Position numbers and translations under genes: made by a program
Source of the DNA: Candidatus Poribacteria bacterium
Lineage (GTDB): Bacteria; Poribacteria; WGA-4E; WGA-3G
Direction: 5' to 3'
NCBI GenBank assembly: GCA_965205025.1
Contig: CBDBFU010000004.1
Location: 12,898-76,897, forward strand
DNA length: 64,000 bases
In this document: piece by piece, positions 8,200 through 64,000 of the stretch
How positions within the stretch are numbered: the stretch's first letter is position 1
Layout: each line of letters begins with the position of its first letter
The notes under the pieces: generated by a model
Told to the model about the DNA's origin: nothing
Database searches by the model: none
Seen by the model: only the letters and a program-made list of their open reading frames with translations

Positions 8200-8337
8200 A
8201 AAGTAGACACACACCGTGTGCCGTTAACCCTATTTAGTTCCGTAAAAATATTATAAAAGAATCAATGTTTAGTTCACTGAATATCAGATATTTCGGAAAT
8301 TCCATATTGTCAGGGTGTGGAAATGTGAATTAACCCA

Positions 8338-8503
8338 TATGCGTCAGTTTAGGAGAAAAATGTTATACCTTGCCTGGTAGGTGCGGTTTCCTGACCGCAC
8401 TGAATTTGTGCTAAACTTTTGATTGAAAGCCTTTCGTATAATCCGCTTCGGTTAGGAAACCGAAGCTACCGTTCCTAAGATATGCACTAAATTGACGCCT
8501 ATG
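8338..8503. mobile_element. IS-derived MITE (~165 bp): degenerate left and right ends of the IS4-family element found at 59038-60492, no transposase, flanked by 22-bp direct repeats
   Basis: Left end TATGCGTCAGTTTAGGAGAAAAATG resembles IS left end TATAGGCGTCAATTTTAGAAAAAGGATG. Right end AAATTGACGCCTATG matches the IS right end. Flanking direct repeats TGTGGAAATGTGAA(T/C)TAACCCA at 8316-8337 and 8502-8523 (21/22). Interior carries two REP hairpins (8380-8402, 8446-8480). Confidence 0.5.
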
Positions 8504-8550
8504 TGGAAATGTGAACTAACCCAAGAATCAGTATAGAATTTGGAGTCTTT

Positions 8551-50605: not shown

Positions 50606-53600
50606 ATGAGAAAAGTATTATCAGACTATATAAAAACACAGGAAGATTTCGAACGATTCTGTAATTTGTTCTTGAAAAAGGAAATATCTCCCCTTGTAAA
50701 GGTTTACAACACATCAGGACCTGATGGGGGTATTGATGCGGAATACTGTGGGACATACGCCGGGAAAAATGGTCGTTGGGTGTTTCAGTGCAAATTCCGT
50801 AACTTACCAAATACAGAGAAAACGCGACGCAACATCATTTCTGTTATGAAAGGTGACAAGAGAAGAAAAGACAAAAGAGGGGAGTTAGACAAAGCAAATG
50901 AATCGAAATGTGATCATTATATCCTAATAACCAACGTCTCGCTGACTTCAGGGAACATTGGTGAAATCAAGGGTATTCAAAGTCAGAAAGGCTATACTTT
51001 TTCATTAGACGTTTGGGATGCTGAAGACCTGATTACAATGATCGATGAATTTCCCTACATACTAAATTCATTCCGAGATCCGCATCTACCTGTATTCCTT
51101 TCTTATGAAGACATGTTCCGCGATCAAATCAAAGGCGACCATAGACTCTTGAGGTACGACTACGATACCTTTGGACGAGAGGAGGAGATTGACCAATTTA
51201 GATCCTTTGTCCAAGACACTGACAAAAGATTGTTCGTTATGTCTGGGAGTGGCGGCATCGGCAAAACTAAACTTGCAATTGAATTCGCAAAAATGGTCGA
51301 ACAAGAACACCATGACTATGAACCCTTATTTGTTCAAATTGCCGAAGATAGTTTTGAAAATGCGTTGGCAGATATTCCACCAAATAGAAAGTACATCTTC
51401 TTTGTAGATGACGCGCATGACTATATAGACAACCTTGGCGGTATTAAAATATTGCTTAAAAGTTCTGGATATAGTGAATCGAAAGCAGTCCTTATAACAC
51501 GAAAGCCGTTTAAAGCATCTTTGAGAGGGATTTTCTTATCTGCGTTACCAGAACAAGCCATTCACGAAATGGAAATTCCAAGACTATCGTTTGAGAAAAC
51601 CAAAGATTTTATCAATTCACATATACATATCCAAGACAGTGTCCGTTTGAATGACTTGGCAAAAATTGGAAAAGATACACCTTTAATTACTGTAATGGTG
51701 ATAGATCTATTCAATAAAGGAAATGATCTTAGTAAATTAACAGAAGATAAATCGATAGAACGTGTTTTTGAATCCTATATAAATGACATATTTAGTAAAC
51801 ACCTTCGTAAATATGACAAACAACACAGAACATTACTTAACTGGTTCAGTGGAATCGAACCAGTAGACATTGAAGATAACAGAACACTCGAAAAATTGGC
51901 TGAACTCTTAAAACTGGAAATCTATGAGATAGAAAGATACCGTGATGATCTTATAGGATCCGGTTTACTTGTTCAGTATGGAAGGAAGTCAAGGGTTTTC
52001 CCTGGTCCACTCAGCGATTATATTTTACGGAATGCATGTTTTTTATCCGATAGGAATACTTCCTCTTTTCACAAGTCATTGTTAGAAGAGTTTCTACCGA
52101 TCTGCCCTATCAATGTTGTTAAAAACTTAGCACGGGTAGAAATCACAGCTGGTAAAACAGAACTTCTTGACGAGTACGTAAATAAGCTTCAATTACTGGC
52201 ACAATCAGGTGATAACGCTGATCGGATGCTTATTCTACTTCAAATGGAAGGCATCTGTTATTTTCGACCAGATGATGCAATTGAGATCTTTAATATCATC
52301 CTGGATAATCCGCATTCTGAAGCCACTGAAGTGGTGGACAAGTTTTGGGGGAAATTCACGGTGACACATCAAGCGTTAGTAGAAAAGATAGCGAATGAAG
52401 CACAAAAGACTGTTTACACGCTTTCAGGATTCCGCGGAACGTTAAATGTTATTCGAAAACTTTTCCAGGCGGATAACCTGGATTCCCCTAATGTTCGTAG
52501 ACCAGAATGGTTACTAAGGGATATAGTCCGTTTCCGAAATGGTAAATCCTTTGTATTTCAAGAGGAAACTCTTGAAGCATTTGAGATGTGGAAAAATGAA
52601 GATATACCAAAGCTCAGTATAGCACTGCTCAACGCACTTGATTCTTTACTTGTAATGGATTTTCAAGAAACTGTCAGTGAAGGATTTACATTGAAGATTT
52701 CTTGGCACTCATTAAAATACACTCCAGCATTAATCCAGATTAGAGAGCGTTCTATCAATCTCATAGCAGATTGTATGAAAGTAACTCAGTATACTAAAGT
52801 TAAATTGAAAGCGATAGATTGTATTAATAAAGCTCTAAGACCGTTTGAGGGTCCTCGTAGGAACCCTGATTTGATGGATGAAGAAGAACAATTATTTCTA
52901 CAAGCAGAGCAAGAACGGCTTTTTCAAATACTTACCAATCAATTATCAGAAGAATCTGATTTCAATATCCTCAATGCCATAGATGAGTGTTTACATGTAT
53001 ACACGGAAAATCCACCCGGCTACTTAAAACAACGTGCTACACAATTGTTAGAAAAATTTGAGAAACAAGATAACTATAATCACTATCTTTTTTATAGGCA
53101 ATTTACTGGAAAATATCGACAGTGGACAACCCCAGAAGAAAAAACAAAAATTCGTTGAAAAGTATATAGAAGAATATCCAGCTAAACGTCTTGCAGAATT
53201 AATGAGTGCATTCCTGGGCTCAAGTGTGTACGAAACGAATACTTTGGCAGTAACTGAACATCTATGGACTATTGGTAAACTTAACCCAGTTTATGGATCT
53301 GAATTGTTAGATTATATTCTTTCTTTGCAGACTGATGTAAAAGATTACGCAGCAGGGTTACTTGGTGGTATTCGTTATTCCAATAACGATAAGGCATTAA
53401 AAATAGAACACCAATTATTGAAACAAGACAATATATCTGTCAAAAGAATCGTTGTAAAGAGTTTTTTATGGGTCATGGAAGGACAATCTTTAGATAAAGA
53501 TAATCTGCAAATTTTACTTCAATTGGTAGATATACCAGATGAAGGCTTAAATTCAGACATTGTTAAAACTCTACCTAATTTCTATAACGTGGACGTAGAA

Positions 53601-54450
53601 TCCGTTCGGGAGATATTACTACGATTATCAACCAATGAATCATCATTGATTAAATCGGAGACTATAAAAGTTCTTTTGAGATTCCCATCACAGAAATACT
53701 TGGACACTTACAAACAGGTAATGCACAATTGTGTGAAATTAGAACACCTTGATTATCATTCTGAGGAAGTCCTACATGCCATATTTATGTCTGATCCGAT
53801 ATGGGTTATTACGTTTTTTGAGAAACGAATTGTATACCAAGAGATGGAATTTAAGAGGAATGCTACAAATTATGAGGCAATTCCAATTCGAACTAACAAT
53901 CTGTTTAGGGAAATTGACTGGAATGACAATAACGTTATGAATGCTTTAAGGCGGGTTAGAGATTGGGGTTTAGGACCTCCGAGTTATCGTAAATGGCTGG
54001 CTCCCGGATTATTGTCATCTATGGTTGATGGGAACAGTTCTCAAATTGAAGGCACTAAAATCAACAAAACGGTGCAAACAATCCTTGAAGAATGGATTGA
54101 CTCAGAAGATTCAGATAAGATGTGGTGGGTAGCTTGTTTGTTGAGAAATTTTGATAAAGACAAAAACTTTTTACTCTCTTGTAGAATCACTTCTTATAAA
54201 AAGTAAAGGAAATGCAAAGATATTAACCGAAATTGAAGTTTCTATTGGTAATGTAGGTGCTTATTCCGGACCTCTTGGTGAACCGCTACCTCACCATGTA
54301 AAACGCCTCGAATACCTTAAGGCATTGCAAGACAAAACTGAATCCTCAATTGTCAAACAGTTTGCAGATCGCCTCATAGATAGAACAAAACAGGAAATCG
54401 AAAGAGAACAGCAAAGGGATGAAGAATTTCTTGAAGGAGAGGAATGGTAA
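50606..54450 (+). pseudogene. Avs-like antiviral STAND NTPase with N-terminal Mrr-type PD-(D/E)xK nuclease domain; interrupted by two +1 frameshifts at A-runs (~53140 and ~54160)
   Basis: N-terminal ...GPDGGIDAEYCG...WVFQCKFRN (Mrr_cat motif), then P-loop MSGSGGIGKTKLAIEFA (NB-ARC/STAND-like), then long helical-repeat region. ORFs 50606-53158, 53058-54206 and 54151-54450 are successive +1 frames. Their joins fall in GAAAAAACAAAAATT and ACAAAAACTTTTTAC. Confidence 0.5.
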
Positions 54451-55623: not shown

Positions 55624-58600
55624 TTGATGCAACAAGATCAGAACAGAACATCAGAATCCCTACAAAAACTACAAGACCTACTCCAAAAACTTTTCCGTGC
55701 AGATGCCGCCGACCTTGACTTCGGCATCTACCGTGTCATTAACCAACGACGCAATCTAATCCAAGCTTATATTGACCAAGAACTTCCCACCGAAATAAAT
55801 GATGCGCTTAACGCAAACGCCGAAATTGAATCAGATCGCGAAAAACTTGAAGAGCTAAAAAAAGGAGTCGTAGATGCTTTTGGTAATGATGTGTTAGATG
55901 TAGAGGGAAATCTAATTGATGAATCCATTAAAGAGCGTCCTGGAGTTAAGAAATACCTTGAGGAGAAAGAACGAATTGGCTCCCCGCAAACTCGTGATCA
56001 GCGCGCAGATGTCGTTTTCAATCATCTTTACACCTTCTTCTCACGATATTACGATAACGGAGACTTTATCCCACGCAGACGTTATTCACAAACCGAACGT
56101 TACGCTGTTCCATATAACGGTGAAGAGGTATATCTCCATTGGGCAAACCGAGATCAATACTATGTCAAGAGTGGAGAGCACTTCTCCGATTACAGATTTA
56201 AGTCTCAAGAAATTACCGTTATCTTTGACCTTCAAAATGTAGATATTGAAAAAGACAATGTCCAAGGCGTTAAACGTTTCTTTATTCCTATAGCAGCAGA
56301 GACTAAATATAACTCAGAAACCGACAAGGTGTGCATCCCTTTTGAATACCGTCCCCTTACCGATGACGAAAAATCACGCTACGGCACCCGCGACCAACAG
56401 GACAAAATCATTGATGCTGCAGAACCTGAAATCTTGGAAAAACTGTCAAACCATTATAATGCATTATCTGCCCTTGAGCATCAAACAGAGGATGTAACCA
56501 TCCTCAAGAAACACCTCCGAACCTATACACGCCGCAACAATGCCGACTTTTTCATTCACAAGAACCTTGGGCAGTTTTTTAATCAAGAATTGGATGTCTT
56601 CATCAAAAACGAAGTGATACCGATGTCCTCACTCATTTTTGATGATGTTAATTTCAATTTAGAGAATCTAAACAAGGTAAATTGGATTGAAACAGCAAAT
56701 CTCGTTCTCACCATCGCTTCTAAGATTATTGATTTCTTGGCACACATTGAAGAATTCCAAAAACGTCTTTGGCTAAAAAAGAAGTTTGTTCTTTCTACCG
56801 ATTACTGCTTTACGCTTGACCGTGTCCCAGAAGAACTCTATCCCGATATAGCGGAGAACGATGCACAACTTGAGGAGTGGAAAGACCTTTTTTCTATTCA
56901 CGAAATAGACCACGACCTTATCCATACCGATTACTCCGAGCCGCTCTCCGTTAACTTTCTCAAAGAAAATCCGAACCTTGTTTTGGATACCTGCCACTTC
57001 GACTCTGACTTCAAAGATCGCCTCTTGACACATTTTAACGATCTGGATAACGAGACAGACGGCTTGTTAATTCATGGGGAGAACTTTCAAGGATTGAATC
57101 TGCTGACTGAGAAATACCGAGAATCTGTAAAGTGTATCCACATTGATCCACCGTATAATACTCAAACAAGTGGGTTTCTCTATAAAAACTCATACCAGCA
57201 TTCAAGTTGGTTATCAATGATGGCAGATAGATTGACTTTATCTGAATATTTTATGGCCCAGGATAGTTGTTTCTTCTCTCATATTGACGAGAGCGAATAT
57301 GAGAAACTTTTCTTGTTTTTTAAAACATTATCAATGGATGATCAAGGGACAGTTGTGTGGGATAAAAGGAACCCCATTGGAGCATCAAATACGATAGCGA
57401 CACAACACGAATATACTATTTGTCATTCTAAGGGAAATGTAAAATTAAAGTCACAACATGCTAATGGTGAAATAATATTAAAAAAAGCATCGTCATTAAT
57501 GAAAGCACATAGTGGAGTTACAGTCCAATGCCGTAAAGAATTTAAAACTTGGATTAACACAAATACAGAGTTAAGCGGAATGGAACGATCCTATTCTGCA
57601 ATTGACGATAATGGACATGTTTATACAACTGTCCATATGGGAGCTGGAGATGTCCGAACAGATCCTAAATACTTTAGACATTTAATTCATCCTATTACTA
57701 AGAAACCTTGTCCTGTGCCGAAAAATGGTTGGTCAAGTACTCCAGAATACATAGATGGTTTATTACAGAATAATGAAGTTAGCTTCGGCGTTGATGAAAC
57801 AACTCAACCACGCCGAAAGTGTTATTTGAAAGATAATCTGACAGGTGAATTAACGTCTGTAATTTCAACTGGTGAACGGGGCAAACACCAACTGGATGCG
57901 TTTGGTTTAGATTTTCCGTATTCTCACCCCGTAGGTTTGTATGAAAAACTTGCTTGGTCAGTTACACCTGATGGAGAAGGTATAATACTTGACTTTTTTG
58001 CAGGTAGTGGTACTAATGCCCACGCAGTTATTAATCTCAATCGTAAAGATCATGGAAACCGAAAATACATCCTTATTGAGATGGGACACCACTTTGATAC
58101 TGCACTGATGCCTCGCGTCAAAAAAGCTGTTTATGCAGAAAAATGGAAGGATGCAAAACCTGTCTCTCGTGATAGTAGACTTTCCCACATCATTAAATAC
58201 CAGCGTATTGAATCTTATGAAGATGCCCTCAATAACATAGAATTCAACGAAACTGATTATCAAAATCTGTTAGTTAACGAACACCAATTGAGTTATATGT
58301 TGGAAAGCGATACAAAGGAATGTCCAACGTTTCTAAACATCTCGGAACTCCAAAACCCGTTCAGTTATCAACTTGATATTGTCAAAGATATGCAGACACA
58401 TACACAGACAGTGGATTTACCCGAAACCTTCAACTATCTTCTCGGTTTATCAGTCAAGACTCGTCAGTGCTTGTACGATGATGACAGACGTTATCTTGTC
58501 TACAGAGGAACAGTTGGGCAAAAGTTGGTCGTCATTATCTGGCGTGAAACTTCAGGGTGGGAACAAGAAGATTATGAACGTGATTATCGTTTCATTCAGG

Positions 58601-58710
58601 AGAATGAACTCACAGAAGGTGCAGCAGAGGTGTATGTCAACACAGATAGCAATGTCCCGGAGGCAAAATCTTTAGATCCGCTTTTTAAACGGTTAATGTT
58701 TTCACAATAA
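55624..58710 (+). CDS. Type III restriction-modification Mod-like N6-adenine (beta-class) DNA methyltransferase with ~480-aa N-terminal extension of unknown function
   Basis: LIHGENFQGLNLLTEKYRESVKCIHIDPPYNT (motif IV DPPY preceded by the Type III Mod I-x-GDNL-x-L box), ATQHEYTICHSKGN, motif I ILDFFAGSGTNAHAV. 1028 aa. Confidence 0.8.
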   Translation: MMQQDQNRTSESLQKLQDLLQKLFRADAADLDFGIYRVINQRRNLIQAYIDQELPTEINDALNANAEIESDREKLEELKKGVVDAFGNDVLDVEGNLIDESIKERPGVKKYLEEKERIGSPQTRDQRADVVFNHLYTFFSRYYDNGDFIPRRRYSQTERYAVPYNGEEVYLHWANRDQYYVKSGEHFSDYRFKSQEITVIFDLQNVDIEKDNVQGVKRFFIPIAAETKYNSETDKVCIPFEYRPLTDDEKSRYGTRDQQDKIIDAAEPEILEKLSNHYNALSALEHQTEDVTILKKHLRTYTRRNNADFFIHKNLGQFFNQELDVFIKNEVIPMSSLIFDDVNFNLENLNKVNWIETANLVLTIASKIIDFLAHIEEFQKRLWLKKKFVLSTDYCFTLDRVPEELYPDIAENDAQLEEWKDLFSIHEIDHDLIHTDYSEPLSVNFLKENPNLVLDTCHFDSDFKDRLLTHFNDLDNETDGLLIHGENFQGLNLLTEKYRESVKCIHIDPPYNTQTSGFLYKNSYQHSSWLSMMADRLTLSEYFMAQDSCFFSHIDESEYEKLFLFFKTLSMDDQGTVVWDKRNPIGASNTIATQHEYTICHSKGNVKLKSQHANGEIILKKASSLMKAHSGVTVQCRKEFKTWINTNTELSGMERSYSAIDDNGHVYTTVHMGAGDVRTDPKYFRHLIHPITKKPCPVPKNGWSSTPEYIDGLLQNNEVSFGVDETTQPRRKCYLKDNLTGELTSVISTGERGKHQLDAFGLDFPYSHPVGLYEKLAWSVTPDGEGIILDFFAGSGTNAHAVINLNRKDHGNRKYILIEMGHHFDTALMPRVKKAVYAEKWKDAKPVSRDSRLSHIIKYQRIESYEDALNNIEFNETDYQNLLVNEHQLSYMLESDTKECPTFLNISELQNPFSYQLDIVKDMQTHTQTVDLPETFNYLLGLSVKTRQCLYDDDRRYLVYRGTVGQKLVVIIWRETSGWEQEDYERDYRFIQENELTEGAAEVYVNTDSNVPEAKSLDPLFKRLMFSQ

Positions 58711-58785
58711 TACCAATTTTGCTTAATTAGTTTACATTAATAGCAAATCGGAGAAGCTAATTTAGTTCAAAAGGATTCTATAAAC

Positions 58786-58856
58786 ATTCCGTCCCTACGG
58801 GACTCAAGATAATGGATAAGCACGTTTTCTATAGACATTTCGTCCCTACGGGACTC
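58786..58856. repeat. two ~35-bp direct repeats each containing hairpin GTCCC-TAC-GGGAC
   Basis: TCTATAAACATTCCGTCCCTACGGGACTCAAGATA / TCTATAGACATTTCGTCCCTACGGGACTCATAATA. Confidence 0.45.
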
Positions 58857-59037
58857 ATAATATCTATATGATAAACCTTATATCACGTAAGTCACGTAAG
58901 TCATAATGTAAATTTATCAATTGAAAATGGTATTATATGGTCTTAATTATTTCAAGGGAAATGACCCATGAAACTCGAAGAAAATAAAAGAATCTGTTGT
59001 TCAAGGAAACGGAGTGAGTTTGTTGAATACCTAACAC

Positions 59038-60492
59038 TATAGGCGTCAATTTTAGAAAAAGGATGTCTGATTTTTCAATAATAATTATTGTTAAGTGAAA
59101 ACATCTCCTATATAATGTATAAAAATATTACCTTTTACTTTATACAAGAGGTGTTTCCAATGAATACATTATCACAGGTTCCTGAAAAAATGCAACAGAT
59201 TCTAACAACCATTGCTGATGAAGCAGCCCTTGAAACAGGATTTTGCAAAAGAAATCGAAAACTTGCGGGGAGTCATTTTGCTCAGACACTTATTTATAGT
59301 TGGTTAGAAAATCCTGATGCCACCTATACTCAACTTACACATACTGCTGCTTCTCTCGGTACTCCAATCTCACGACAAGCGATTGAACAACGATTTACTG
59401 CTGAAGCTGCACAAACCCTCAAAGCAATCCTTGACGCGGCTGCGTCCGAAGTGATTTCTGCGGATCCACAAGTTCTCCCACTCCTTGAACAGTTCAACGG
59501 TATCTATATACAAGATAGTTCTTGGATAACACTCCCTGATACGCTTCACGATATTTGGGAAGGTGCCAGTAAAAAGGATTATCCGAACAAATCCGAACTG
59601 AAACTCCATCTACGCTTCGATGTTGCTACAGGGACATTCGAACACTTTCAACTCACCAACGGCATCACCGCTGATAGCACTGTAGAAAAACAGATTGACC
59701 GGCTCCCCCAAGGGAGTTTACGCCTTGCGGATCTCGGTTATTTTTCGCTACAAACCCTTCAAGAACTTACGGACGAAGGGGTCTTTTGGATTTCACGGTA
59801 TAAAGTTAGGTGTTCGGTTTTTGACAATACAGGAAAGCCTCTTTGTTTACATAAATGGCTCAAGTTTCAGACCGAAAACATTATCGAAACAGATATTTTC
59901 ATAGGTTCAAAAAAGCGGATGAAAGTAAGATTAGTAGCTCAGAGACTCTCCGAAGAAGAAACCGAAAAACGACGACGAGATATCAACTATCGTGCTAAAC
60001 GAAAGCATACACAAGCATCACAGGCACGACTCCAACTCGCAGGTTGGAATATCTACATTACAAATATTGGAACGGATCAACTCACCGCTGAACAGATATG
60101 TGTCATTGCGCGGATTCGATGGCAGATCGAGTTGATATTTAAGTGCTTTAAAAGCCTTGGAAAAGTAGACACATCACGAAGTAAAAAACCGTATCGTATT
60201 CTATGTGAAATATATGCTAAACTGATCGCTGCAATCATTCGGCATTGGGTGATGTTGGTCATAGGATGGCGATGTTTACGGCATAGTTTATCGAAAACAG
60301 TAGAGCTTATTACGTCCTACACACGCACAATCACAATAAGCTTTCGCAAGTCAAAGAGACATCTTAGAGAGACATTTGATGAGATAAAACAAGTATTCGA
60401 AAACGGGTGCTACATTGAAAGAAGAGCTAATAGAAAAACAACATTGGAATATCTTGAAAATGCTACAAAAAACCGCTAAATTGACGCCTATG
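59038..60492 (+). mobile_element. complete IS4-family insertion sequence (1455 bp) with 15-bp terminal inverted repeats, flanked by a perfect 20-bp direct repeat
   Basis: IRL TATAGGCGTCAATTT (59038-59052); IRR reverse complement CATAGGCGTCAATTT (60478-60492). Flanking direct repeats GTTTGTTGAATACCTAACAC at 59018-59037 and 60493-60512. Single transposase ORF. Confidence 0.75.
59160..60479 (+). CDS. IS4-family DDE transposase
   Basis: AAGAGGTG RBS then ATG 59160 (MNTLSQV...). C-terminal Y-x-x-R-W-x-I-E-x-x-F-K motif (IARIRWQIELIFKCFKSLGK) is typical of IS4/DDE_Tnp_1. Confidence 0.8.
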   Translation: MNTLSQVPEKMQQILTTIADEAALETGFCKRNRKLAGSHFAQTLIYSWLENPDATYTQLTHTAASLGTPISRQAIEQRFTAEAAQTLKAILDAAASEVISADPQVLPLLEQFNGIYIQDSSWITLPDTLHDIWEGASKKDYPNKSELKLHLRFDVATGTFEHFQLTNGITADSTVEKQIDRLPQGSLRLADLGYFSLQTLQELTDEGVFWISRYKVRCSVFDNTGKPLCLHKWLKFQTENIIETDIFIGSKKRMKVRLVAQRLSEEETEKRRRDINYRAKRKHTQASQARLQLAGWNIYITNIGTDQLTAEQICVIARIRWQIELIFKCFKSLGKVDTSRSKKPYRILCEIYAKLIAAIIRHWVMLVIGWRCLRHSLSKTVELITSYTRTITISFRKSKRHLRETFDEIKQVFENGCYIERRANRKTTLEYLENATKNR

Positions 60493-60570
60493 GTTTGTTG
60501 AATACCTAACACCCAGAAGGCACCAACAACGCAACTCAAAAAAGAGACACGGCAACTCACAGAACACACG

Positions 60571-63500
60571 GTGAACGCAATGCCTAACGCACGACAGCAA
60601 CGCAAACTTGACAACCATCTCACCCTTCACGGATGGTTAAATAGCCACTTCAAGTACAAAACAACACAAGACCTTCTTAACGCAGTAAAAAACGAAGAGG
60701 AAGGCTTCAATCCAGATGGACACTCTCCCATCTGTGAATTTCTTATCTCCCGTGCAGAGCCAGATTCAGCAATTGAGAATGCCCTACCAACCTACGACAG
60801 TAACATCAAACGACACCTGTCCGCTATAAACAGTAAACGTACACAACCGATTGTTCTCCGCTATTTCCAATACCTTTCCCTGATCTATACCGAAATATTC
60901 CTTGATTGGAAATTCAACAAAAGTGGTGAATTCTTACGTCAACTCAATGATTTTGTCCAAACACGTAACGATGCGCGAGCACCGAGTGACGCGATGGATA
61001 CACCTTTTTCAGAAGCAGACGTTGAAAAACTCGCCTTCTGGATGGCAACGGGTGCTGGCAAAACACTTATTATGCACATCAATTATCACCAGTTCCTGCA
61101 TTACTGCAAAGAAAAGTTAGACCACATTGTGCTTATCACACCTAACGAAGGATTAAGCGAACAGCACATGCGTGAACTCGCAAACTCGGATATCCGATGC
61201 GAACGGTTTAACGTTGAAGGTAATCGTCTGTCGCACGCGGACGATACGATGCAAGTCATTGAAATTACAAAGTTAGTAGAGGAAAAAACAGGTAGCGGGG
61301 TAAGTGTTCCAGTTGAGGCATTTGAGGGAAATAATCTTATTCTTGTTGATGAAGGACATAAAGGCAGCGGTGGTAAAGTTTGGCGTGAATACCGAGAAGC
61401 ACTTGCCGAAACAGGTTTCACTTTTGAATACAGTGCGACCTTCGGACAGGCACTCGCTGCTGCAAGCAATGCTGATCTCATTGATGAGTACGGTAAATCC
61501 ATTGTATTTGATTATTCCTACCGATATTTCTATGGTGATGGATACGGTAAGAACTTCCGCATTCTCAACGTCAAACATGACGACGCAACCCAAACGGAGA
61601 TGCTACTTTTAGGCAATCTTCTGAGCTTCTATGAACAGAGACGTTATTTCAGTCAAAATACTGAGGTAGTGTGTGATTACGGTTTAGACTCGCCACTGTG
61701 GGCATTTGTCGGTAGTAGGGTGAATGCCGTTTATTCCGAAAACAAACAATCACGTTCTGATGTTCTTAACGTTATAAGCTTTCTGCATCAGTTCCTGAGA
61801 AATGAAAAAGGATGGGCAATTGATACTATTGAGAAAATCCTCAACAACGATTCCGGATTAAAAGATGACAACGGTAGCGATGTTTTTTACAATAGACTTA
61901 GTTATCTCAAAGAATCCAGAGATACACCAGCGCAAATTTACACCGCTATTCTCAACGAGGTATTTCACACTGATTCAAGTGGGGAATTACACCTGAGTGA
62001 CGTCCGTAATGCTCCTGGTGAAATCGCTTTAAAAACAACACATGGTAGTAAGGAATTCGGACTCATTTACATCGGTGACACGTCTGCCTTCAAAAAACTT
62101 GTTGAAAATGACGATGCAGGTATTAAAACGGATTCTGAAGATGTTCTCACCGAGAGTCTCTTTAACGGCATTAACACCGTTGACAGTCCAATTAATATTC
62201 TCATTGGCGCGAAAAAGTTCATTGAAGGATGGGACAGTTGGCGTGTCACCGCTATGGGACTATTGAACATTGGTAAGCAAGAAGGCTCTCAGATCATTCA
62301 GCTTTTCGGCAGAGGGGTTCGCCTACGTGGCAATGATATGTGTCTTAAACGAAGTAGTGCCGTTGGTGGTGAACATCCGCCTAATCTTCCACTTTTAGAA
62401 ACACTTAACATTTTTGCTGTCCGTGCCAATTTCATGGTACAATTCCGAGATTACCTTATGCGTGAGGGTGTCCCACCCGACGAACCTGTCCAATTGGAAT
62501 TACCCATCAAACCGAACATAAATTACCTTTCGAATCAACTTTTTGTTCCAAAAGTGTTGGAATATAACAAAGCTGCGAAAGGAAAGTGTGTAATGCTTAA
62601 AGCAGATCCAGCTGCTATTATTTCCCATACGACCCAAAGCGTTGAGATTATTGGGAGTAGTTCACAGAGTGGTATCCAAGGGGATCGAGCGGATGCGGCA
62701 CTCCAAACTCATATTGAAGATAAATACTTGAAATTAGTAGACTGGGAGAACATTTACTTGCAACTCCTTGAGTACAAGCAAGAAAAAGAATTTCATAATC
62801 TGATTTTTAATACCGAGATTCTTCAACAGATACTTAATCCAAACAAAGGTTTATATGAACTTTATGTCATGGATGAGTCTGAAGTTATGCCGAAATCATT
62901 TGTTGAATTGGAACGATTAGAGGAATTAGTACTAACACTCCTCCGCAAATATATTGCTAAATTTTATCGTATTATTCAAAAACGTTGGAATGATGAAGCA
63001 GTACGCTTAGATAAGTTGAAAAAAGAGAACCCTAACTTCACTAATTGGAAAGTTTCCATCCCTCGAGAGGATGCAAGTGAACTTGAGCCACAAATAAAAC
63101 ATCTCATAGAAAATGGCGTTATATATGGACCTGATTTAACCCATCTTCCCAATATCTATAATGACCGTCATCTCTACCAACCCCTTCTCACTGTAGGTGA
63201 AGTAGACACGGTGTTACGTACAACCCCGCCAGCCTTAGAGGAAAGTGAAAAACACTTTGTCGAAGATCTTCGTCGTTACGTACGTAATCAAGATGAGACA
63301 CTCCTTGCCAAAAAGGAGATTTACCTCTTACGTAACCAGAGCCGTGGCAAAGGAATGGGTTTTTTCGTAAATGAAGGCTTTTACCCCGACTTCATCCTCT
63401 GGATACTTGAAGGTGTGAAACAGCGGATCGTTTTCATAGAACCCCACGGTATGATCTATGAAGTCATAAATGAACACAACGACAAAATTACTCTTTTCAA

Positions 63501-63720
63501 GAGACTGCGATCCCTCTCCCATGAACGTTTCCGTGGTGAACACGTGCAAATGGATGCCTATATGATTTCAAGAACCAGTATGTCTAATCTTATACGTAAA
63601 TATCAAGACGAGGACAGAGATACATTTGCAGAAAAATGGCATATCCTTTTCCGCACCGATACCGATCCCACCTACCTTTCCCCAATCTTTCAAGATCCAG
63701 ATTCAGATTTTTCTGCCTGA
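60571..63720 (+). CDS. Type III restriction enzyme Res-like subunit: SF2 helicase/ATPase with C-terminal nuclease-like region
   Basis: Motif I MATGAGKTLIM, motif II LILVDEGHKG (DEAH-type), motif III YSATFGQA, motif VI QLFGRGVRL. C-terminal YPDFILW...RIVFIEPHG resembles PD-(D/E)xK with K replaced by H. 1049 aa. The start is GTG 60571 or ATG 60580. Confidence 0.75.
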   Translation: MNAMPNARQQRKLDNHLTLHGWLNSHFKYKTTQDLLNAVKNEEEGFNPDGHSPICEFLISRAEPDSAIENALPTYDSNIKRHLSAINSKRTQPIVLRYFQYLSLIYTEIFLDWKFNKSGEFLRQLNDFVQTRNDARAPSDAMDTPFSEADVEKLAFWMATGAGKTLIMHINYHQFLHYCKEKLDHIVLITPNEGLSEQHMRELANSDIRCERFNVEGNRLSHADDTMQVIEITKLVEEKTGSGVSVPVEAFEGNNLILVDEGHKGSGGKVWREYREALAETGFTFEYSATFGQALAAASNADLIDEYGKSIVFDYSYRYFYGDGYGKNFRILNVKHDDATQTEMLLLGNLLSFYEQRRYFSQNTEVVCDYGLDSPLWAFVGSRVNAVYSENKQSRSDVLNVISFLHQFLRNEKGWAIDTIEKILNNDSGLKDDNGSDVFYNRLSYLKESRDTPAQIYTAILNEVFHTDSSGELHLSDVRNAPGEIALKTTHGSKEFGLIYIGDTSAFKKLVENDDAGIKTDSEDVLTESLFNGINTVDSPINILIGAKKFIEGWDSWRVTAMGLLNIGKQEGSQIIQLFGRGVRLRGNDMCLKRSSAVGGEHPPNLPLLETLNIFAVRANFMVQFRDYLMREGVPPDEPVQLELPIKPNINYLSNQLFVPKVLEYNKAAKGKCVMLKADPAAIISHTTQSVEIIGSSSQSGIQGDRADAALQTHIEDKYLKLVDWENIYLQLLEYKQEKEFHNLIFNTEILQQILNPNKGLYELYVMDESEVMPKSFVELERLEELVLTLLRKYIAKFYRIIQKRWNDEAVRLDKLKKENPNFTNWKVSIPREDASELEPQIKHLIENGVIYGPDLTHLPNIYNDRHLYQPLLTVGEVDTVLRTTPPALEESEKHFVEDLRRYVRNQDETLLAKKEIYLLRNQSRGKGMGFFVNEGFYPDFILWILEGVKQRIVFIEPHGMIYEVINEHNDKITLFKRLRSLSHERFRGEHVQMDAYMISRTSMSNLIRKYQDEDRDTFAEKWHILFRTDTDPTYLSPIFQDPDSDFSA

Positions 63721-63859: not shown

Positions 63860-63957
63860 AGAAGAGGTGTGGGACGCGAACGTAAGTTGAGCCAATAGAA
63901 AATGTAGTATTCATTTTATTGTTTACTATAGTTCTGGCTGTGTGATGAATTGCACCG

Positions 63958-64000
63958 TAGGCGTCAATTTAGTGAGATTCGTATATTTTTAGGTTGGTTT
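63958..64000 (+). mobile_element. probable left end of another copy of the IS4-family element or its MITE derivative, running off the window edge
   Basis: GTAGGCGTCAATTTAGTGAG matches IRL TATAGGCGTCAATTTTAG. Preceding TGATGAATTGCACC resembles the target/direct-repeat sequence seen at the other two insertions. Confidence 0.4.

Follow-up and report, generated by a model that had tools for sequence, protein, structure and literature searches.

Does an insertion sequence (IS) that separates the methyltransferase and restriction genes of a Type III system silence the restriction gene, and how did it come to stand there between direct repeats of 20 bp? These questions are raised by a stretch of 64,000 nt of Candidatus Poribacteria DNA (contig CBDBFU010000004.1; the window), in which mod, for the methyltransferase, and res, for the restriction subunit, are separated by an IS4-family element at 59038-60492. 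An original prediction, made from the letters of the window, had taken the element for a recent insertion and for a natural switch-off of restriction.

The element is a complete IS of 1455 bp on the + strand, which its sequence, profile matches and alignment with relatives place in an IS231-related clade of the IS4 family. Its single long open reading frame (ORF), the transposase gene (59160..60479, + strand), encodes 439 aa from an ATG and is intact, so that a complete IS4-family element with an intact transposase, as originally predicted, was found. The protein scores 89.7 bits against the Pfam model DDE_Tnp_1 (PF01609, cut-off 23) and 211.7 bits against the NCBIfam IS4 equivalog IS4_1 (NF033592, cut-off 115); the NCBIfam IS1634 model (NF033559) gives 45 bits, below its cut-off of 100. 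It can be aligned end to end with its relatives, in which D119, D191 and E324 are invariant, and the spacing of these residues, 72 and 133, fits the D(60-110)D(100-150)E arrangement of the IS4 family. The YREK motif retains R320, E324 and K331 and has alanine (A317) at the Y position, which in the relatives is A or V (Poribacteria), L (Herpetosiphon) or Y (Chlorohelix and IS231F). No match to the transposase was returned at E ≤ 10 by a search of PDB sequences, nor any match by an Rfam scan of 58400-60900.

A repeat search placed the terminal inverted repeats (TIRs) at 59038..59052 (left, + strand, TATAGGCGTCAATTT) and at 60478..60492 (right, − strand, reverse complement CATAGGCGTCAATTT). They share a core of 14 perfectly paired bp, ATAGGCGTCAATTT, and differ in the outermost, fifteenth base, T at 59038 on the left and C (the complement of 60492) on the right, giving 14/15 and not the perfect 15 bp first reported. 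The clade usually has C at this left position. A fresh, disabling mutation was considered as the origin of the T and rejected, since the closest copy (L039 among the related loci, which are given L numbers here; truncated, 92% DNA identity over positions 1-1102) likewise has a terminal T, which marks it as a trait of the lineage. Short TIRs with 5′-CA, as expected of the IS4 family, were found at the right end as CATAGGCG and at the left end as TATAGGCG. Compared with the IS231 TIR signature CAT-------AA--TAA, CATAGGCGTCAATTTAG matches the CAT and the AA at 11-12, and matches the TAA in part (TAG or TTA).

The same 20-bp sequence, GTTTGTTGAATACCTAACAC, borders the element at 59018..59037 on the left and at 60493..60512 on the right, the copies agreeing at 20/20 positions. 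Even with 3 mismatches allowed, it occurs at these two places only in the 64-kb window, where 0.01 occurrences are expected by chance. Both the perfect 20-bp flanking repeats and the insertion that the original prediction had read from them were thus upheld, the latter as a true transposition event. Removal of the IS and one repeat copy restores an empty site that reads ...GGAGTGAGTTTGTTGAATACCTAACACCCAGAAGGCACC... The 1455-bp IS would have transposed into the mod-res spacer in the same orientation as the operon, duplicating 20 bp of the target. Given the perfect duplication and the intact ORF, a recent insertion is plausible.

Relatives of the element were collected by scanning one genome per species, which yielded 43 loci at 52-86% identity, nearly all of them in Candidatus Poribacteria chromosomes, where they are multi-copy, and all with the same TIR core. 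Duplications were analysed in 40 complete elements, comprising 38 of the 43 loci, the window IS and a miniature inverted-repeat transposable element (MITE) from the window that is described below. Perfect flanking repeats were present in 31/40, with a length of 20 bp in 20 copies and 19 bp in 11. Just inside the junctions, 30/31 elements have C at the left and G at the right, also where the target flank differs, and from this constancy the elements were taken to end in C...G (CATAGG...CCTATG). Reconstruction of the targets gave G at position −1 in 25/31 and C at position +1 in 30/31; the consensus for the clade is G|G(T/G)...(A/C)C|C. Thirteen of the duplicated targets are near-perfect repetitive extragenic palindromic (REP) hairpins, such as GGTGCGGTTTCCTAACCGCACC, about ten derive from a second repeat family, GGGTAGAGCG.TAGCGAAACCC, and about eight, including that of the window IS, are unique sequences. 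Two relatives lie on plasmids of Chloroflexota: the one from Chlorohelix has a 20-nt repeat, GGGTGCTAAAACCAGTGCCC, adjoining CATGGTCGTCAATTTAA ends, and the one on Herpetosiphon pHAU01 a 21-nt repeat. As a control, the same procedure was applied to IS231F and returned ~12 bp next to CATGCCCATCAACTTAAGAAT; a Clostridium relative (L133) was left out because the record goes no further than its right end. This comparison of flanking sequences shows the 20-bp repeat of the window to be the normal product of its clade, namely a target duplication of 19-20 bp. The staggered target cuts would then lie about two helical turns apart, and not one turn as is typical of IS4 elements.

Separately, the chromosomes OZ243938, OZ250160 and OZ244616 (L004-L045) were seen to hold many copies of the clade, mostly in REP hairpins of 21-22 bp, which are themselves duplicated.

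The flanking repeats could also have another origin, either a tandem repeat or REP pair that was present before the element landed, or an artefact of assembly. Members of the clade often adjoin REP-like repeats, and nine of the 40 elements have no matching repeat, their two flanks being REP-like and unlike each other. This tells against the account given above, as does the outcome of the search for an uninterrupted site: no orthologous empty site for the insertion was found among the loci of Res relatives or by a search with the junction 26-mer. JGI metagenomes contained no exact match to this 26-mer, which spans the left junction or empty site, and when the transposase, Mod and Res were looked up by exact sequence, no record of any of the three was returned. 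The locus of the closest Res relative (L003, 92%) was considered as an empty site and rejected, having a different spacer of 586 bp with an ORF on the opposite strand. The unlike flanks of the nine copies suggest recombination between IS copies or later decay. Against a pre-existing repeat, GTTTGTTGAATACCTAACAC is absent from the rest of the window and is not a REP, and a single IS is bordered in its several copies by different unique 20-bp repeats (L004, L005, L010, L030 and L034). Moreover, repeat lengths are held tightly to 19-20 bp across the clade, the IS-borne terminal C and G stay constant while the target flank varies, and relatives from another phylum, the Chloroflexota, have repeats of equal length. 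A chance pair of repeats or a misassembly is on these grounds exceedingly improbable.

Duplication of the target, at this length, sets the element apart from known members of its family. A survey of the IS4 family found direct repeats of 7-13 bp in all seven subgroups, a duplication of about one helical turn being a family hallmark (PMC2266710); the values here are 20 bp in the window, 19-20 bp in 31/40 elements and 20-21 bp in the two Chloroflexota relatives. The nearest named transposases are those of IS231Q and IS231F (29% identity over 95%), which with IS231A represent the IS231 subgroup of the Bacillus cereus group. Like these, the present element is a single-ORF DDE element of ~1.45-1.65 kb with homologous TIRs, CATAGGCGTCAATTT here and CATGCCCATCAACTT in IS231F, which have CAT ends and AA at 11-12 (PMC2266710 Table 1), and its target is likewise symmetric, with a G-rich and a C-rich end. 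IS231A duplicates 11 bp at GGGNNNNNCCC (PMC2577343 Table 1). The differences lie in the target, in the catalytic motif and in the hosts. IS231 duplicates 10-12 bp at GGG(N)5CCC, whereas the present clade duplicates 19-20 bp at G|G(T/G)...(A/C)C|C, often taking an entire REP hairpin as its target; the Poribacteria copies have A or V, and that of Herpetosiphon L, in place of the Y of YREK; and the hosts are Poribacteria and Chloroflexota, not Bacillus. Of these features, the profile matches place the element in the IS4 family, and its ends and the symmetry of its target liken it to IS231; by the length of its duplication it would stand outside the family hallmark. Long repeats occur among IS4-related elements in IS1634/IS1549, where they are unusually long and range from 8 to 514 bp between copies (PMC2266710). 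Repeat length is thus variable in that group, unlike the fixed 19-20 bp of the present clade. IS1397 and ISKpn1 are IS3-family elements that target REP and bacterial interspersed mosaic elements (BIMEs), insert in the loop and produce short duplications; they share the preference for REP sequences with the present clade, which differs in duplicating the whole hairpin of 20-22 bp and in using non-REP sites as well.

It is therefore tentatively proposed that these elements form an undescribed IS231-related clade of Poribacteria and Chloroflexota with a fixed stagger of 19-20 bp, G|G...C|C target sites and a preference for REP hairpins, a proposal to which we would give slightly less than an even chance. 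The term undescribed is provisional; literature searches, which did not cover ISfinder, found no paper describing duplications of 19-22 bp by a bacterial IS. The length of a duplication reports how the DDE transpososome holds its target, and the IS4 family includes the structurally solved Tn5. A fixed stagger of ~20 bp at a symmetric target with G/C ends would thus offer structural and biochemical work a natural contrast to IS231 (11 bp, GGG-N5-CCC). If the proposal is true, the clade would have a different target-capture geometry, and perhaps provide a route by which REP copies multiply and REP arrays grow. For annotators there is a practical warning, in that searches for target duplications limited to ≤13 bp will mis-call the ends of these elements.

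The genes on either side of the IS are intact. Beginning at ATG 55627, mod (55627..58710, + strand) encodes a long-form Type III methyltransferase that is full length at 1027 aa, against 1028-1029 aa in relatives, and matches PADLOC MTase_III (753.6 bits) and Pfam N6_N4_Mtase (PF01555, 82.8 bits). The Type III restriction subunit encoded by res (60580..63720, + strand; 1046 aa) matches PADLOC REase_III (522.8 bits) and Pfam ResIII (PF04851), a superfamily-2 helicase domain. Its homologues number thousands and are 1040-1050 aa long overall, the best being 85-92% identical and 1045-1050 aa long. The N-terminal sequence that they share, MPRxNxQRKLDNHL, lines up with MPNARQQRKLDNHL at ATG 60580, from which it follows that res starts at this codon and is full length at 1046 aa; of the two starts originally offered, 60571 and 60580, homology thus favours the ATG at 60580 and not the GTG at 60571. 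An N-terminal truncation of res, suspected from an offset of ~70 residues in the REase_III profile, was rejected in view of the 1040-1050 aa of the homologues. It was also considered that the IS might interrupt a longer res ORF; this too was rejected, since stops occur in the res frame ahead of the insertion point once the site is restored and the homologues start at the same MPxxxxQRKL, and the IS is accordingly intergenic. By domains and gene order the pair, with the IS between, is a predicted Type III restriction-modification system. The order of the genes is kept, mod then res on one strand, with 1869 bp between them. EcoP1I and EcoP15I are organised in the same way, with mod upstream of res on one strand and with N6_N4 methyltransferase and ResIII helicase domains; the present system differs in its much longer proteins, of 1027 and 1046 aa, and in its spacer of 1869 bp as opposed to 2 bp in EcoP1I (PMC3874151). 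Res has acquired 29 lineage-specific changes here and 43 in L003 (with L001 as outgroup), and so gives no sign of relaxed constraint.

Mod was seen to diverge far more than Res among close relatives (the window, L003 and L001), with 590 as against 910 invariant sites at similar alignment lengths. This divergence is attributed to a presumably variable target-recognition region.

The IS does not account for all of the spacer. The 1869 bp from the mod stop to the res ATG begin with 327 bp of filler, followed by the IS (1455 bp), the second copy of the 20-bp repeat and a further 67 bp of filler, so that the IS, said in the original prediction to lie exactly between mod and res, is indeed intergenic between two intact genes, the inexact part being the 327 + 67 bp of non-IS sequence that are also present. 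The older filler at 58711..59017 is missing from close relatives and is not repeated in the rest of the window. It includes two REP-like hairpin units of 36 nt, at 58776-58811 and 58827-58862, which form a tandem pair of 89% identity with the core CGTCCCTACGGGAC. The remaining 67 bp upstream of res (60513..60579) contain no predicted promoter-like or terminator-like site. Relatives have far shorter distances from the mod stop to the res ATG: 22 bp in L001 (Res identity 91%), 23 bp in L002 (90%), 21 bp in L047 (65%) and 19 bp in L048 (75%). Since ~394 bp of filler are missing from the relatives, the IS landed in a spacer that was already expanded, and the comparison shows that this spacer had grown from ~22 bp to ~394 bp before the insertion.

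The 36-nt hairpin repeat, TTCTATAAACATTCCGTCCCTACGGGACTCA, is shared with other Poribacteria chromosomes (L016, L020 and L024), and such recurrence identifies the units as REP-like dispersed repeats; they appear to represent a second dispersed REP-like family. A 33-nt imperfect inverted repeat at 58707-58739 and 58904-58936 was considered as a second element and not adopted, being 79% complementary, AT-rich and without a flanking duplication.

Separation of mod and res is not unusual in the long-form Type III family, as was found in a survey of 71 related loci in which both gene ends could be placed (L047-L126 and L001-L003). The two genes lie −89 to +23 bp apart in 41/71 (nearly all at −14 to +23), 91-123 bp apart in 4/71 and 426-1686 bp apart in 26/71. 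The inserts encode HepT with an MNT-type nucleotidyltransferase, HEPN, Fic and DarT-Macro proteins, and further a YhcG/DUF1016 nuclease, HTH-IrrE, ORF6N and an IS200-like Y1 transposase; in the closest relative, L003 (92%), the 586-bp junction insert has an ORF on the opposite strand. In the 26 insert-bearing loci, res still aligns over most of the query. The mod-res junction would thus seem to be a place where toxin-antitoxin and defence cargo has landed repeatedly.

Signals that might govern res were sought in the spacer by promoter and terminator scans. The transposase gene runs in the direction of mod and res and stops 13 bp short of the IS end. Between 58710 and 60580 the + strand has no predicted terminator-like site, so that transcription could read through the IS into res; nor does the E. 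coli-type consensus, from which Poribacteria promoters may differ, pick out a sigma-70-like site in 60493-60579. A promoter of res within 60493-60570, which the original prediction had named as evidence that would tell against it, is therefore not among the predictions; the nearest match, TTGAAA-17-TAAATT at 60454..60482 (+ strand), is inside the IS, at its right end, reads outward to res and is no better than chance. Another predicted sigma-70-like site, TTGTTA-17-TATAAT at 59088..59116 (+ strand), lies upstream of the transposase ATG and is a candidate transposase promoter. Altogether 21 promoter matches were found in the region, against 15.3 ± 4.1 in shuffled sequences, which is no excess.

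With the insertion, any close coupling between mod and res would have been lost, a coupling itself suggested by the spacing of 19-23 bp in close relatives, and transcription of res would now have to pass through the IS, arise within it or start at a promoter outside the predictions. On balance it is rather probable that expression of res has been altered, presumably to a lower level, and not abolished. Any tight coupling was lost earlier, since the IS entered a spacer already ~394 bp long, and res is still intact. The switch-off that was originally proposed found no support, given the co-orientation of the IS, the absence of a predicted terminator, the unaccelerated Res and the cargo at the junction in 26/71 loci. 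Three considerations speak the other way. The promoter and terminator scans use an E. coli-type consensus, with matches not above shuffled controls; a very recent insertion would make the intact res ORF and unaccelerated rate uninformative on current expression; and if the promoter arrangement of EcoP1I holds here, 1.9 kb of inserted DNA could bring about a strong drop in the res transcript. Transcription of EcoP1I res starts from a promoter that lies within mod, a bicistronic mRNA was not detected, and the level of Res depends on Mod post-transcriptionally (PMC3874151).

Two stronger effects on res were weighed against this partial reduction. A strongly polar IS would silence res and leave a cell that methylates without restricting (r− m+), a loss that would be harmless because Mod still protects the genome. 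The spacing of 19-23 bp in close relatives is consistent with coupled expression of the two genes, and in EcoP1I, where the gap is 2 bp, translation of res is ascribed to ribosome re-initiation (PMC3874151); the lack of a promoter-like site in 60493-60579 points in the same direction. Yet the coupling had already been broken by the older filler of ~394 bp with res nonetheless intact, the IS is co-oriented with no terminator predicted, and Res has no excess of substitutions. Similar or larger inserts, some of them on the opposite strand, are also carried by the 26 of 71 loci, with res aligning over most of its length, and complete silencing is accordingly considered unlikely. Conversely, the IS might drive res, its transposase promoter or an outward promoter at the right end raising res expression or freeing it from mod. 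Since the transposase gene ends 13 bp short of the IS border, its transcripts must leave the element in the direction of res, 88 bp downstream, and besides the predicted sites at 59088-59116 and 60454-60482 the right TIR holds an outward-facing TTGACG. However, this TTGACG is not followed by a good −10 element, the promoter matches (21 found, 15.3 expected) are not above chance, and IS transposase promoters are usually weak. An excess of Res over Mod would also be risky and selected against, yet Res is unstable without Mod in EcoP1I and EcoP15I (PMC3874151). Activation of res by the IS is thus quite improbable, well below silencing in likelihood. The preferred reading is a reduced and not abolished expression of res. 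The restriction aspect of the locus is an ordinary one, mobile elements often landing in or beside restriction-modification genes; what stands out is the duplication of double the usual length, and the REP-prone target with G/C ends, of the IS clade.

Other elements and genes in the window bear on the same subjects. The MITE-like derivative mentioned above, 166 bp long at 8337-8502 (8317..8522 with its repeats; + strand), has the same TIRs as the IS and is flanked by 20-nt direct repeats, GTGGAAATGTGAA(T/C)TAACCC, at 8317-8336 and 8503-8522, with 19/20 positions matching. It holds internal REP-like hairpins, GGTGCGGTTTCCTGACCGCAC and GCTTCGGTTAGGAAACCGAAGC, and sits between an AIM24-family gene and an enolase-superfamily gene. 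When its neighbourhood was compared in relatives by way of the enolase-superfamily gene, the intergenic regions were too diverged to show an orthologous empty site. Upstream of the Type III genes, at 50606-54206, an ORF of 850 aa is followed by an overlapping ORF of 382 aa without a Pfam match. The ORFs of this region, which lies just upstream of the Type III system, have weak, below-cut-off similarity to STAND/AAA NTPases, and the region may be a defence island. Downstream of res, separated from its stop by a 235-bp spacer, lies the left end (C+GTAGGCGTCAATTT; 63956..64000, + strand) of another, related IS, which has the same orientation and runs off the window; its interior is unlike that of the first IS, and the sequence before it, GG...AC, is of the usual kind for a target. 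The two IS elements bracket res in the manner of a composite transposon.

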